From Octopus vulgaris (Eukaryota), in contig CATOCA020000106.1 in NCBI GenBank assembly GCA_951406725.2, positions 1 through 5,277 of the forward strand: a stretch of 5,277 bases of DNA, written 5' to 3'. Numbering within the stretch: position 1 is the first letter of the stretch; every line of letters starts with the position of its first letter. Below are positions 1 through 5,277 of the stretch, in pieces. Made by a program: the position numbers and the translations under genes. The notes beneath the pieces are model-generated. The model was not told where the DNA came from and made no database searches. It worked only from the letters and a program-made list of their open reading frames with translations.

Positions 1-127
1 AACTGAAGGGTCGTTCTTTATGTTACTTGTCTTGTTTTCCATTTGTTTCTTTCGTTGTTCGCAAAAAAGATTCGTATTCCATGTTTTCGTATTTCATGTT
101 ATTTACGTTTTATGACGTCCTGCACCA

Positions 128-174
128 ATACATGCATATATATGTAAGTATGTACACATATGTATGTATATATG
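128..174. repeat. Degenerate TA/TATG simple repeat at the SINE 3' flank
   Basis: atacatgcatatatatgtaagtatgtacacatatgtatgtatatatg, almost entirely alternating purine/pyrimidine. Confidence 0.7.
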
Positions 175-545
<371 letters not shown>

Positions 546-589
546 AAAAAATGAAGTTCGAAAATGCTGCTGTATTATACAATTTTTAA

Positions 590-660
590 TTTTTATATAT
601 ACATTATAACATGTTTCAGTTCCTGAAATGAACCTTATCAAAAAAAGTTATATATAAAAA
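590..660 (-). ncRNA. Putative minimal type I hammerhead ribozyme (variant core) at the PLE 3' end
   Basis: Minus strand reads TTTTTATATATA-ACTTTTT-TTGATAA-GGTTC-ATTTCAG-GAACT-GAAA-CATG-TT-ATAATG-TATATATAAAAA. Core UUGAUAA (641-635), 5-bp helix II, GAAA (617-614), palindromic ACATGT, NUH triplet GUU (610-608), all enclosed by a perfect 12-bp inverted repeat (590-601/649-660). The proximal part of helix I is imperfect. Confidence 0.65.
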
Positions 661-726
661 GAGACAGCTCATGCCGTCAAACACAAGAAATTCATTTATA
701 ATACACAACGGAGTCAGACATCTTAG

Positions 727-774
727 AGTTCATGTATAGTTGATATATAGTTCATGTATAGTTGATATATAGTT
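727..774. repeat. Perfect 22-bp tandem duplication (agttcatgtatagttgatatat x2 plus agtt)
   Basis: 727-748 is identical to 749-770. Confidence 0.95.
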
Positions 775-996
775 TGAAGTATATGTTCAAAGTGTTCGAT
801 GCAGTGGCCCACGGTGGCGATACGTATTCAATACAAAAAACAGATCAAAGTGGTGGAAAGCGGTCAATACAGAAGATTGATGTTTCCGAAAGAGCGAGGA
901 ATTCATTTTTACCTTAAGCAATTGTGATGACCCATGGTGGAAGTTCGCTGGGTGGTTCTAGTGAGTTTTTGTGAAATGCTCGGTTTTATAATGCCT

Positions 997-1355
997 GTTA
1001 GGTGGTCAATCTAGCGTAGCGTGACGTCATCAATGTTTTGACCAATCGTTTCGTTAGGTGGCTTTAATCAAGTGGAACGGGACGTCATCATTATTTTGAC
1101 CAATCGCTGCATTATAACTCCCTCTTGTTTGTTTCCTGTCTTGACCAGTCGCTTCGTTAGTCAAGCATAGCGGGACGTCATCCAGATTCTGCCCAATCAC
1201 GACTTATAGCTACATTAGATCTGCCCCCTGTCTGTACTTGTTAGGTGACTATTCAAGCAGAAAAGGACGTCATCAATATTCTGACTAATGACTGTCCCCT
1301 GTTTGTATCCTGTCCATTCTAGCAGAGCTAGACGTCATCAACTTGTTGACCAATC
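997..1355. promoter_or_regulatory. Degenerate array of five GACGTCATC...CCAAT modules (CRE/ATF-like plus NF-Y-like sites) in the PLE 3' UTR
   Basis: GACGTCA starts at 1023, 1081, 1174, 1266 and 1331. CCAAT starts at 1042, 1100, 1193, 1285 (as CTAAT) and 1350, always 19 bp later. The repeat is directly seen; regulatory function is inferred. Confidence 0.6.
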
Positions 1356-1522
1356 AGAATCGGGTCTGACCCTTAGCTGTATCGTATGTATCAGGGTCAG
1401 ATTTGCACGAAAGAATTTTTTTCCTTTTTTACTAAGGCATATTTCCGTCAGAGTGAGTGTCTGTTTGAAGTAGCGGCCGTGGTGAAATTTGGTTCTCCTT
1501 TTCGGAGGACTTATCTTTTGTT

Positions 1523-3820
1523 TTAGTATTCCTGGCCCAGGGTGTTTAAACTTGGTCTAAATTTTTTTATGAAATATAGTTCTTTATTTTGGCGTTGTGT
1601 GAAGGTTGCGTTGTCACTGAATTTATAGAGCGGGTTAGTTGTAAATTTCGGATTTACATTTCCAGCACATCTATCTATGTGTCCGCTGACCGGTATTTTG
1701 CGGTAATCAGGGTTTCTAATTTGTGATTTATGCACCGCCATCCTGTTACGTAAGCTATTTTTTGTATGGCCTATATACTGCCTATTGCAGCCTGCGCATG
1801 TTATGACGTAAATTAAGTTTTCTGATGCGCAGGTGAAGTTTGTTCTAATGGTGAACTGGTGGCCTTGTTCCAGTATAAATTCTGATCCTTCTTTCAAGAT
1901 GACACAGATTCCGCAGTTGGGCCTTCCACATTTTCTAACTGCTGGTTTTGTGGTTGATGTTGAGTGCAGTGTAGCTTGGGTTAAAATCCTTTTCAAGGAT
2001 TTTGGTTGCCGTTTACTTTTAATGATGGTGTGTGTTTCGAGGATCCGGTTCATCTTTGGGTCTCCCTTTAGTAGGGCTGTGCTTTGTAGTATGGTGTTGA
2101 AGGCCTCATTGTTGAGTGGGTTGTGTGTAGAGATGTAGGGAAGGGTTTTTAATTGTTCTTTCTTTTTTGGTTTTGTTTGTCTCAGGTCTTCTATACTTAA
2201 TTTAAGTACCCGTTGGATTGCACTGTCTATTAGGGGCTGTGGATAGTTTCTATTTGTGAGTGTGGTTCTAAGTTCCTGGAGACGTGTGTGTCGGGTGTTT
2301 GTGTCTGATATTATGGTGCAAATCCTTCTAGCTAAACAAAAAGGGACATTCATTCTAGTGTGTCGTGGGTGGCATGAATCAAAGGGTAGGTACTGTTTAG
2401 AGTCTGTCGGTTTATAGTAGATATCTGTCTCTATTTTGTTGCCGGTTTTCTTAATGAGGATGTCTAAAAATGGTAATTCTTTTTCGTTGTGGTCCATCGT
2501 GAATTGTATATTGTCATTTATTCCATTTAATAGAATTTTAAATTCCTCAAGTTTCTCTATGCCTTTGTCCCAGATGATGAAACAGTCATCGAGGTATCTT
2601 TTCCAGTTGTTATGGATATAGGTGGCGAAGGTGTTTCCATATTTCTCGAGTGTCATCCGGTATAGTATTTTCTCGAGGTATCCCATCACTAGGTTGGCAA
2701 AAGATGGTGCAGTACGCGTGCCCATCGCTGTTCCCGATCTTTGCCTGTAGAAATCATTGTCAAAAATAAAATAATTGTTCTCTAAAATGAATCTAAGTCC
2801 TTCTATTATAAGGTCTTTGTTTATGCGAGTTGGGAGTTCAAAGGGGTAGTTATTCAGCCAGAAGGTGATTGCTTCTATTCCTAGGTTGTGAGGGATGTTA
2901 GAATAAAGATTAACTACGTCGAATGATACTAGAAGGGTTTTCTCATTGACTGTTTTAGGGAGGTGGTTGAGCATATCTATATCGTCTCTTACGTAGCTTT
3001 TGATGTGTTTTAGGAAAGGTTTAAGAAGTGTGTCTAAGAAATTGCTGAGGCGGTGAGTTTCACATGCTGGCCCTGCTATTATCGGTCTTAGTTTAAGATC
3101 ATTTGGTGAAGGGATTTTGATGAGTGTGTCGGTGGATGTTTTGCACGTTTCTCTAATGGTTTGGCTTTTGTGTACCTTAGGGATACCATAGAACAAACTC
3201 GATTTGCATTTGAAGTTAGTGATGTATTCATACTCCTTGTTCGTGAGTCCTTCTTGGTATGTGTTGATTAATGTCCTAAGGTTATGCATTATTTTTTGCT
3301 GGTTATACTGTTGGGCCCTTTCATAATACGTTTCATCTCTTAATAGGGATAGCACTAAATTTTTATAATTGTTTGTATTCATTATTACTATCGCGTTGCC
3401 CTTATCTGCCTCCTTAATTGTTATTGTTTTGTCTTCTCTTAGTTTGATGAGGTCGTTCCATTCTCTTTTGTTGAAGTTAGGGCTGTGTTTTTGTTTCTTG
3501 ATGAATTGAAACGGGAAATTAGTTATGTAGTCACAATAGCGGTCTAAGGCTTTATTCTTACCTTTGGTGGGGGTGTAATTGCTCTTGTTTCTAGCTATTG
3601 AGTCCTCCTCTATTTGTTTGTCTTGAAATGCCTCGGTGAGTCTTAGTTTTCTGCAAAATTCCGAAATATCATCTTTCATTTCATAATAATTAGAACGTTG
3701 TGGGGTGGGTGTAAATTTAAGTCCTTTGGAGAGTATGCTTATTTCGTTAGGTGTAAGTTCTTTGTTTGAGAGATTGATTATCTTAATTACCTGAGGTTTC
3801 TTTTGTTTGTCCTTTGCCAT
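1523..3820 (-). CDS. PLE polyprotein: reverse transcriptase + GIY-YIG endonuclease (765 aa, uninterrupted)
   Basis: Motifs in order: IINLS, LSKGLKFTPTP, ADKG (DKG at 3398-3406), YGIPKVHK, LRPII, FDVVNLYSNIP, GTAMGT..APSFANL, catalytic YLDD (2585-2596), LPFLD, YYKPT, SCHP, linker CGRPNCGIC (1904-1930), LIY-VITCAGCNRQ-YIG (1769-1816), R...H and H..C downstream, terminal E..FI..F.PSLN. The ATG has A at -3 and G at +4. Confidence 0.97.
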   Translation of the reverse strand: MAKDKQKKPQVIKIINLSNKELTPNEISILSKGLKFTPTPQRSNYYEMKDDISEFCRKLRLTEAFQDKQIEEDSIARNKSNYTPTKGKNKALDRYCDYITNFPFQFIKKQKHSPNFNKREWNDLIKLREDKTITIKEADKGNAIVIMNTNNYKNLVLSLLRDETYYERAQQYNQQKIMHNLRTLINTYQEGLTNKEYEYITNFKCKSSLFYGIPKVHKSQTIRETCKTSTDTLIKIPSPNDLKLRPIIAGPACETHRLSNFLDTLLKPFLKHIKSYVRDDIDMLNHLPKTVNEKTLLVSFDVVNLYSNIPHNLGIEAITFWLNNYPFELPTRINKDLIIEGLRFILENNYFIFDNDFYRQRSGTAMGTRTAPSFANLVMGYLEKILYRMTLEKYGNTFATYIHNNWKRYLDDCFIIWDKGIEKLEEFKILLNGINDNIQFTMDHNEKELPFLDILIKKTGNKIETDIYYKPTDSKQYLPFDSCHPRHTRMNVPFCLARRICTIISDTNTRHTRLQELRTTLTNRNYPQPLIDSAIQRVLKLSIEDLRQTKPKKKEQLKTLPYISTHNPLNNEAFNTILQSTALLKGDPKMNRILETHTIIKSKRQPKSLKRILTQATLHSTSTTKPAVRKCGRPNCGICVILKEGSEFILEQGHQFTIRTNFTCASENLIYVITCAGCNRQYIGHTKNSLRNRMAVHKSQIRNPDYRKIPVSGHIDRCAGNVNPKFTTNPLYKFSDNATFTQRQNKELYFIKKFRPSLNTLGQEY

Positions 3821-4983
3821 CGTGTGTCCCTGTTCCTGTGTGTGGGGTCTAAAAAATGGTTGGTGTAGTTATGTTCAAAGCTATTATTTATCTGTCTCAT
3901 GTTGTTATAATTGTCAGAGTGAGTTTGTGGTGCTCTGTTCTGGAGTCTGTTGTTGAACCTAGTGTTACGTCTTAGTTCCTCAGGTGTATTGTGTTGGTAG
4001 TTGTTTCCTCCGTAGTGCATTTGTTGTTTGTTATGGTTGTATGGTTGGTTCCTGGGGTGGATGTTTGGTAGTAGCGTTTTGGTTTGGTTATGTGGGTTGT
4101 ATTTTATAGTATTGTATGTTGTGGCTCTTAGGTTCGTGGAATGGTGTGGTGGGACCCTATAAGTGTTTTGGGGTTGGTGTAGGTAGTGTGGGGTGCGTTT
4201 TAAATGCATTTTTCTGGTGTAGAGTGTGTTTGGATTTCTTGGTGGTTGTTCTGCTCTGTTGGTATGTCTATTTTCGAACTGGTGTGGTGGGCCTCTGTAG
4301 GTGTTTTGGGGTTGGTGTAGGTAGTGTGGGGTGTGTTTTAGGTGTACTTTTCTGGTGTAGAGTGTGGTAGGATTTCTTGGTGGTTGTTCCGTTCTATTGG
4401 TATTTGGTTTTGATTTGCTTAATTTTATGAAGGGGTTGTTGGATATGTGTTCATTTTTGAAGTTGGTTTCATAATCTAGAAACCAGATGGCGCTCTTTTC
4501 CCATCGTTGGAGGGACTTAAGTTCCTCTTTTTCACATTCTTCATTCCATAGTGCTGTTAATGTTTCAGTATTGTTGTCGTCTATTAGTTTGATGACTTCT
4601 TCGTTGATTTCCTCGTCTATGGTTTTTACTTTTTCTTCATTCGTTTTAGCTCTCAGCTTAAGTAGTTCTATTTCCATCTTCATTTTTTCTAATGACATTT
4701 TTTCTCTAAGTTTTCTTTGTTCTTCTGGTTCTTCCGAGATGGGTTTGATTTGTAATTTACGGGGTATGACTAGGGGTGTTGAGTCTAGCCATTTTTGGTA
4801 AATCTCTGCTTTATTCTGATTTTGTATCATTTTCCAAAAAGCGAATTTTCTGTTTCGCTGTAGTGTTCTCCATTGGGGGAGGACTTGGTTCTTTATTTGT
4901 AATGTTGAAGTTGCTCGGTTCTTCTCATGTGTTCCTTCTTTTTGTTGCTCTTGTTTCGTAAAGTTTGTGAAGAATGTCGTCAT
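3787..4983 (-). CDS. Upstream ORF1 of the PLE, 398 aa, unknown function: charged helical/coiled-coil N-half and low-complexity N/H/Q/P/T/R-rich C-half with a 46-aa duplication
   Basis: 1.2 kb open frame in AT-rich DNA, same strand and base bias as the RT ORF, overlapping it by 34 nt. E/K-rich heptad-like segment EEQRKLREKMSLEKMKMEIELLKLRAKTNEEKVKTIDEEINEEVIKLI. The start codon abuts the microsatellite, so the true start is uncertain. Confidence 0.8.
   Translation of the reverse strand: MTTFFTNFTKQEQQKEGTHEKNRATSTLQIKNQVLPQWRTLQRNRKFAFWKMIQNQNKAEIYQKWLDSTPLVIPRKLQIKPISEEPEEQRKLREKMSLEKMKMEIELLKLRAKTNEEKVKTIDEEINEEVIKLIDDNNTETLTALWNEECEKEELKSLQRWEKSAIWFLDYETNFKNEHISNNPFIKLSKSKPNTNRTEQPPRNPTTLYTRKVHLKHTPHYLHQPQNTYRGPPHQFENRHTNRAEQPPRNPNTLYTRKMHLKRTPHYLHQPQNTYRVPPHHSTNLRATTYNTIKYNPHNQTKTLLPNIHPRNQPYNHNKQQMHYGGNNYQHNTPEELRRNTRFNNRLQNRAPQTHSDNYNNMRQINNSFEHNYTNHFLDPTHRNRDTRWQRTNKRNLR
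3850..3856 (-). other. Candidate -1 ribosomal frameshift slippery heptamer U UUU UUA (also reads as part of a TTTTTTAG splice-acceptor-like site)
   Basis: ORF1 codons CAT TTT TTA (H-F-L) put the heptamer in the correct X XXY YYZ phase. The -1 frame is the RT frame and is open from 3868 to the ATG at 3820. Confidence 0.55.
4142..4403 (-). repeat. In-frame tandem duplication, period 138 bp (46 aa), inside ORF1
   Basis: 4142-4265 matches 4280-4403 (for example ggatttcttggtggttgttc at 4232 and 4370). Protein TNRTEQPPRNPTTLYTRKVHLKHTPHYLHQPQNTYRGPPH versus TNRAEQPPRNPNTLYTRKMHLKRTPHYLHQPQNTYRVPPH. Confidence 0.97.
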
Positions 4984-4985
4984 TG

Positions 4986-5004
4986 TATATATTTATACAT
5001 ATAT

Positions 5005-5065
<61 letters not shown>

Positions 5066-5068
5066 CAC

Positions 5069-5132
<64 letters not shown>

Positions 5133-5140
5133 GCACACAT
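4986..5140. repeat. Compound microsatellite: degenerate TA/TG, (TA)23 at 5014-5059, (AC)27 at 5071-5124
   Basis: Read directly from the sequence. Confidence 0.98.
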
Positions 5141-5277
5141 AATATCAGCATTGAATTTCAAAATTAATTAAATTATATGTATATCAATCATTATTCGTTA
5201 TAGAAAAAAAGAAAAATTAATGTAGTATGGATCAAAGTATACCACCTTTCTCTCGCTATCTTTCCCATCCAAATTCT

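Follow-up and report, generated by a model that had tools for sequence, protein, structure and literature searches.

The 5,277-nt window analyzed here (Octopus vulgaris, assembly GCA_951406725.2, contig CATOCA020000106.1, positions 1 to 5,277 of the forward strand) carries on its minus strand a retrotransposon that, judged by its sequence, is a 5'-truncated, two-gene Penelope-like element (PLE) of the Neptune/Nematis type, the type being assigned by motif match. Its reverse transcriptase (RT) and its GIY-YIG endonuclease (EN) share one reading frame, which overlaps an upstream open reading frame (ORF1) by -1. On the basis of comparisons of DNA and protein sequences, we consider it likely (probability roughly 0.85) that programmed -1 ribosomal frameshifting at a U UUU UUA heptamer within this overlap yields the enzyme as an ORF1-RT-EN fusion.

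The slippery heptamer and its conservation

The RT-linker-GIY-YIG frame is intact (1523-3868, minus strand, 781 codons), being open from 3868 to its stop at 1525-1523, with its first ATG at 3820 and a TAA at 3869-3871, four codons ahead of the heptamer, closing it upstream. ORF1 is open on the same strand from 4992 to 3790 and ends with a TAA at 3787-3789, and the RT frame is -1 relative to it. The ORF1 codons CAT TTT TTA supply a U UUU UUA at 3850-3856 (Phe377-Leu378, 20 codons before the ORF1 stop) in the exact phase for -1 slippage, that is, a canonical X XXY YYZ heptamer inside a -1 overlap. No other stretch of six T occurs on the coding strand of the element (3461 nt); within 16 codons, an in-phase T6R is expected by chance with a probability of about 5e-4 and any canonical XXXYYYZ with about 0.08. 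A U-free, unstructured spacer of 30 nt (10 codons, 3820-3849) separates the heptamer from an RT-frame AUG in strong context (3818-3820; A at -3, G at +4) that overlaps ORF1 codon 13 (UGG, Trp). The 80-100 nt downstream of the heptamer folded worse than shuffled sequences (z = +1.4 and +2.1), and a crude search found no stem or pseudoknot starting 3-12 nt downstream of it. The sequence-only reading that had first proposed a frameshift here placed the RT frame, the TAA, the ATG, and the heptamer with its phase at these positions, all of which were recovered on re-derivation from the sequence, and it was also correct that no strong hairpin follows. At this site tRNA-Phe and tRNA-Leu would slip back by one base on the heptamer, by analogy with human immunodeficiency virus 1 (HIV-1) and Semliki Forest virus (SFV) through two routes, Phe-Leu and Phe-Phe (described in part of PMC6771820), and free ORF1 would be produced in excess over the fusion.

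The sequence-only reading had named the conservation of the offset and of the heptamer in related copies as the check to be made. For this comparison 97 loci were collected, together with L098 (which shares a contig with L081) and L099. An RT tree with 95 rows places the window inside a 19-row clade with Shimodaira-Hasegawa (SH) support of 100. Seven of these rows do not include the junction (six start too late and L021 starts just behind the site), and it is visible in 12: the window, ten loci with U UUU UUA or U UUU UUG in the -1 phase (L001, L002, L003, L004, L007, L008, L009, L010, L011, and L081), and one locus without it. The -1 offset and the heptamer are therefore kept in 10 of the 11 clade relatives with a visible junction. 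Three pairs are related (L001/L007, L008/L009, and L010/L011), leaving about eight lineages, and the arrangement is kept across families that are about 31-58% identical in RT. None of the ten heptamer loci has an RT-frame AUG ahead of the first conserved motif, and a stop in the -1 frame lies 0-4 codons before the heptamer at 8 of 11 sites. This stop abuts the heptamer in L003 and L011 and is one codon away in L002 and L081, so that the point of entry into the RT frame is pinned. In-phase T6R sequences in L017 and L031 lie inside long single reading frames and were treated as chance. L081-L085, L099, and RT matches named by NCBI are animal retroelements found in bacterial genome bins bearing the names of bacterial symbionts, a placement that most likely reflects host contamination.

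The ORF1 proteins carry the same signature. After 51 of 152 proteins with short or cut tails were dropped, Phe-Leu was found within the last 45 residues of 76 of the 101 full-tailed homologues, against 2.7% predicted from the remaining parts of the tails. The residue before Phe-Leu is never Glu, Gln, Lys, Met, or Trp (0 of 76 versus 53 of 109 in the control, p = 1e-8), which fits a U-ending codon at this position because the codons of those residues cannot end in U. Three tails (P0228, P0259, and P0141) read Phe-Arg where their relatives show Phe-Leu, possibly owing to a different shift site or to decay.

A continuous ORF in the family, or loss of the heptamer in related intact copies, had been named in the sequence-only reading as grounds for abandoning the proposal, which still stands as far as these checks go. 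No full-length protein with ORF1 and RT fused in one ORF was present among the best 120 of 838 RT matches (612-803 aa, with lengths up to 1367 allowed) and the best 150 of 566 ORF1 matches (87-553 aa), and a weak search of 441 candidates yielded no longer protein with the ORF1 domain; a profile search with alignment A2 returned three matches only. As to the heptamer, its retention in the ten clade loci stands beside two loci that lack it: L099, which has a -1 overlap and its own AUG, and L065, a decayed L002-family copy with five T only that was left out of the tree.

The distance from the heptamer to the ORF1 stop

The same U UUU UUA, commonly followed by G, is used in HIV-1 gag-pol and in alphavirus (SFV) 6K/TF (PMC6771820, in part). 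The HIV-1 and SFV sites have a downstream stem-loop, whereas none is conserved here. Folds of the 60 nt downstream gave a mean z of about -0.3 over 11 loci, with a clear hairpin in L003 only and weaker ones in L004 and L081, and a crude pseudoknot search of 12 loci gave values clearly above shuffles in L003 only, with L010 and L032 borderline. Thus, the searches of these 11-12 loci revealed no stimulatory hairpin or pseudoknot conserved 5-9 nt downstream of the heptamer; long-range pairings or protein stimulators may take its place.

A different regularity was seen in the 76 Phe-Leu tails. Counted from the Phe to the end of ORF1, 12 residues are present in 28 tails, 13 in 6, and more in 42, and never fewer, so that the heptamer is followed by a minimum of 10 codons before the ORF1 stop and by exactly 10 in 28 of 76. 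If stops arose at a constant rate, about 6 tails would be expected to end at the first allowed position and 43% to fall short of it, a statistic that ignores kinship. The ten spacer residues are about 10% identical, and on a quick ORF1 tree the stop-distance trait needs 11 changes, six of them forced by well-supported branches. Two loci that were not selected for spacing have the same distance, each match having a probability of about 3% by chance: L032, whose ORF1 of 643 codons is unrelated and whose heptamer is U UUU UUA, and L052, which lacks an endonuclease and has A AAA AAC. Both are distant PLEs with the stop 10 codons on. The L032 ORF1 (1917-3848 of that locus) gave no match in a Pfam scan, and its end looks, by its motif, like an SGNH/GDSL esterase domain. 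In L052, the spacer carries telomere-like, ACCC-containing repeats (1200-1270).

We tentatively raise the possibility, which is speculative and which we hold to be more doubtful than the frameshift itself, that stimulation comes from a ribosome located on the ORF1 stop, where it would form a roadblock one ribosome-length in front of a trailing ribosome on the heptamer. In the relevant parts of one report (bioRxiv 2023.02.01.526718), a 10-codon gap between two A-site codons is the minimal collision distance in yeast, and disome-sized footprints are enriched at stops in human cells. The nearest precedent is SARS-CoV-2, in which the position of a stop affects -1 frameshifting (Bhatt et al. 2021; PMC8168617, in part). 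That stop is five codons away and was proposed to act through pseudoknot refolding, whereas the stop is at least ten codons away here and no structure is present, and the arrangement therefore fits a ribosome roadblock rather than refolding. Our literature search returned no paper that treats a stop codon placed one ribosome-length downstream as a frameshift stimulator. If such a roadblock operates, RT output would scale with the ribosome load on the element's own mRNA, and its recurrence in an endonuclease-less PLE, where the geometry is kept but the heptamer differs, would make it either ancient or convergent.

Several points weigh against a queue of ribosomes. The distance exceeds 13 in 42 of the 76 homologues and is 22 in this element. 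A low U content, as in the spacer, reduces the frequency of stops by itself; the third frame of the spacers still has 4 stops in 117 codons, and U-poverty does not explain the sharp mode. The disome report also speaks of "10 codons behind", an ambiguity of one codon (bioRxiv 2023.02.01.526718, in part), and termination pausing rarely triggers collisions according to the portion of a 2026 eLife article that addresses it (PMC13341110). The labels of stop distance cluster by kin, such that p-values overstate independence, and a further nine RT loci, in which the heptamer is A AAA AAC, depart from the 10-codon rule with overlaps of about 200 codons. These nine (L041, L044, L055, L069, L070, L072, L075, L076, and L078) belong to a separate long-branch RT group with large ORF1s, in which A AAA AAC lies near the start of the -1 overlap. 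As to the sequence around the stop, a GA-rich motif of the termination-pause kind ahead of it was not consistent when checked by eye, and C at position +4 after the stop (5 of 7 loci with a count of 12 versus 0 of 6 others) was left unused given the small sample.

The window and five relatives form one group in the ORF1 tree (SH 88). The stops of this subclade lie at 21-28, four of the six at 22, and those of its sister group at codon 13. Trp occupies exactly codon 13 in all six subclade rows, and the sequence A-UGG creates the RT-frame AUG at 3820. It may be that the former stop turned into UGG and a two-ribosome queue now extends over 20 codons, that a ribosome at AUG 3820 is involved, or that RT arises in part by reinitiation; under the roadblock proposal, the obstacle in this subclade would be the two-ribosome queue or a ribosome initiating at the codon-13 AUG.

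Other possible routes to the enzyme

A number of observations weigh against programmed frameshifting. This copy has no stimulator structure, and U UUU UUA alone may shift weakly. L099 and L065 lack the heptamer, as described above. Among the 101 ORF1 tails, 5 have only Phe-Phe and 20 have neither Phe-Leu nor Phe-Phe. Gene calls for the best 120 RT homologues place a Met upstream of the first motif in 53, start inside the motif in 44, and start later in 23, called starts being suggestive only. The subclade of this element keeps a good-context AUG at 3820, a possible source of free RT. Finally, an acceptor-like sequence, TTTTTTAG, occurs at 7 of the 11 DNA sites.

The alternative that survives best, although we regard it as improbable, is that in this subclade RT comes mainly from its own AUG at 3820, whether through termination-reinitiation once the ORF1 stop 31 nt downstream has been reached or from a shorter transcript, with the heptamer in a secondary role or as a tether at a set distance from the stop. 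The strong context of the AUG favors this route, as does the Trp that all 6 subclade rows carry at codon 13 and that is compatible with A-UGG. The closest RT homologues begin with Met at a similar place, and the ORF1 and RT of one contig (P0130/P0008) fit the same overlap. A fixed distance between motif and stop is, moreover, typical of reinitiation signals. The same six rows, however, all keep Phe-Leu with a preceding residue compatible with U, and the ten other heptamer loci have no such AUG while their -1 frame is open from the heptamer. The phase is also kept in families with other stop distances, and the slippery heptamer of L052 is different yet canonical.

A second alternative takes the T run and its AG as a 3' splice site, with RT translated from a spliced mRNA that skips ORF1. 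Besides the acceptor-like sequence noted above, a donor-like site at 912 in the promoter-like region 3' of RT (described below) would, in a tandem array, join the heptamer AG in the RT frame, a one-in-three chance. No AG is present at the site in L002, L010, L011, L081, or L052, however, and at least 15 of the 76 homologues have a residue after the Leu whose codon cannot start with G. A pattern search found no donor between the RT stop and the ORF1 start in L001, L002, L004, and L007, and splicing does not require that ORF1 run through the site in a fixed frame. In a run that we guessed to be RNA, no joint or loose end was seen at the heptamer AG, but these were contigs only and are no evidence of absence. 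We judge splicing to be very unlikely.

Contigs of other sequencing runs bear on the two remaining alternatives. At least half of the sequence words of 3400-4900 are present in 20 of the 24 runs listed, from nine studies. Contigs of four runs, one of which may be the source of the window itself, were compared with 3000-4975; listings covered 32 of the 659 pieces and 40 of the 282 substitutions, to which the following refers. The site is bridged without a gap by record 19 of run X5 (3572-3937, depth 394, no differences) and record 28 of run X6 (3564-4192), as well as by the diverged pieces X5 record 20 and X6 record 29 (22 differences in 261 and 14 in 185). Pieces of X1 and X18 cover the heptamer and end a few bases on, and were not counted as bridging. 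Six indels were listed, all at 4181-4479 and none at the junction.

Slippage of a polymerase (Pol II or RT) on the T6 run could add one U and so fuse the frames in RNA or DNA. One extra T would indeed suffice, and homologue P0224 reads Phe-Phe-Phe and continues in frame into the RT motif. The phase is fixed, although a slipping polymerase would have no need of any codon phase; the T run has a length of only six, L052 has A AAA AAC in phase, and the listed pieces of the four runs (contigs only) contain no insertion at the site, all of which makes this explanation highly improbable. The caveat of the sequence-only reading that the two-ORF layout might be a chance indel in this one copy, or in our terms a homopolymer assembly error in a decayed copy of a single-ORF element, can be practically dismissed, for although the copy is truncated and a single T separates the two layouts, gap-free contigs bridge the site in two runs, ten divergent loci share the layout, and no full-length fused protein appeared among the best RT and ORF1 homologues.

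ORF1, the element, and its place among Penelope-like elements

ORF1 (annotated at 3787-4983, minus strand, and probably 5'-truncated) encodes a three-helix, coiled-coil-like domain and a disordered tail. The predicted model places helices at residues 9-67, 87-133, and 136-178, with predicted local distance difference test values mostly above 85 over residues 31-190. The conserved domain spans about 4881-4399 and has 566 homologous representatives at E ≤ 0.001; the tail that follows is rich in Asn, Gln, His, Pro, and Arg and contains a frame-preserving 138-nt tandem duplication (4142-4403; 89% identical over 124 nt). No Pfam family scored above its cut-off, no capsid fold or zinc knuckle was matched at E ≤ 0.001 in PDB or viral libraries, fold searches gave generic helical matches only, and the ESM Atlas gave no usable match. 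The retrovirus-like, gag-pol character suggested by the sequence-only reading thus holds for the layout of two ORFs in a -1 overlap and not for the protein: as modeled, ORF1 is gag-like in layout only, with three long helices, a disordered tail, and no capsid match. The absence of a capsid fold and zinc knuckle is a further difference from the HIV-1 and SFV systems. No relatives were found among viral contigs.

Because complete homologues align to 4947-4911 of the window from their residue 76-88, and a high-depth contig (run X5 record 23) extends 266 bases past 4975, this copy is probably truncated at its 5' end and likely lacks about 65-75 N-terminal codons. The ATG at 4983 is then probably not the start used by the family. 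A fusion of 1153 aa had been calculated, a sum that is right from this ATG; given the truncation, an intact copy would yield a fusion closer to 1,220 aa than to 1,153, and this copy is likely not expressed as a whole.

The enzyme has the features of an endonuclease-bearing (EN+) PLE, with a PLE-type RT followed at the C terminus by a GIY-YIG endonuclease. The RT core (2543-3094, minus strand; residues 259-442) matches Pfam RVT_1 with E = 1.2e-6, just below the curated cut-off, and the GIY-YIG domain (1553-1816, minus strand) is above its cut-off with E = 3e-6. Two cysteines lie between GIY and YIG (C691 and C694) and form part of a CCHH motif in which C691, C694, and H713 are invariant across 46 aligned proteins and H730 is nearly so. 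The RT-EN linker carries a zinc-finger motif (1904-1930, minus strand), C647-x4-C652-x2-C655, that conforms to the CX2-5CxxC pattern of Neptune/Nematis and is likewise invariant in the 46 proteins. Both motifs agree with the description of these elements in the corresponding part of Craig et al. 2021 (PMC8557442). A preference for (TA)n targets belongs to the Neptune/Nematis description; in the one insertion of this family that was seen, (TA)n lies on both sides, as a (TA)n microsatellite at 394-547 on the 3' side and a (TA)n/(TG)n microsatellite at 4990-5130, at the 5' truncation point. A short, GC-richer repeat at about 190-393 adjoins the former and resembles an octopus short interspersed nuclear element.

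The region 3' of the RT frame resembles a pseudo-long terminal repeat (pLTR) promoter (985-1364, minus strand), with five repeat units of TGACGTC/CCAAT type followed by a TATA box. On the minus strand at 990-909 are the TATA box (990), a strong-context AUG (935) that opens an 8-codon frame, and a donor-like, phase-2 AG/GTAA (912). The units at 996-1364 and the 990-909 segment are probably a pLTR promoter with a 5' intron, and TGACGTC arrays also lie 3' of the RT stop in L001, L002, L004, L007, and L081. EN+ PLEs are described as having a pLTR that bears a hammerhead ribozyme motif. The window gave no Rfam hammerhead match and no hammerhead core pattern, and the Rfam scan returned only sub-threshold matches driven by microsatellites. 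Hammerhead core-like motifs were seen after the RT stop in the same five loci, of which L001 (period 3699), L004, L002, and L007 are arranged head to tail in tandem, and a compact, hammerhead-like core lies after each RT stop and before the following ORF1 start.

EN+ PLEs of the Neptune/Nematis type are described as single-ORF elements in the pertinent part of Craig et al. 2021 (PMC8557442), as the sequence-only reading had stated of canonical GIY-YIG PLEs. Here, ORF1 overlaps RT by -1, and this two-ORF layout is family-wide; single-ORF elements with long N-termini fall outside the clade of the window in the RT tree. Sections of other articles likewise present typical PLEs as single ORFs (PMC3846280, PMC6515669) and ascribe two-ORF layouts to endonuclease-less PLEs (PMC6431247, PMC13159263); the layout is also treated in part of PMC5408684. 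Our literature search found no paper on a frameshift in endonuclease-bearing PLEs, although Repbase entries may already note two ORFs, and Penelope does not occur in the two-thirds of the Atkins 2016 review that were searched. Athena/Terminon and other endonuclease-deficient PLEs likewise have a coiled-coil-type ORF1 ahead of RT, a likeness that is by description. Athena/Terminon elements lack the endonuclease and are telomeric, whereas the element in the window has a GIY-YIG domain and microsatellite flanks, and the crude search found no pseudoknot. Athena is reportedly the element to which the frameshift-with-pseudoknot mark in the legend of Craig 2021 refers. According to that legend (Fig. 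1; PMC8557442, in part), a frameshift accompanied by a pseudoknot can set ORF1 apart in some PLEs.

If a gag-pol-like frameshift is conserved in a clade that comprises hundreds of ORF1 families, the annotation of these elements would change, in that RT frames without a start codon would be intact and not broken. It would also imply that a structural or RNA-binding ORF1 product is made in excess. For the study of recoding, the clade offers U UUU UUR sites from nature by the dozen, which have no RNA structure in common and whose distance to the stop is sharply conserved, and the collision of ribosomes at a stop codon, as a candidate stimulator of programmed frameshifting, becomes open to a simple reporter test.

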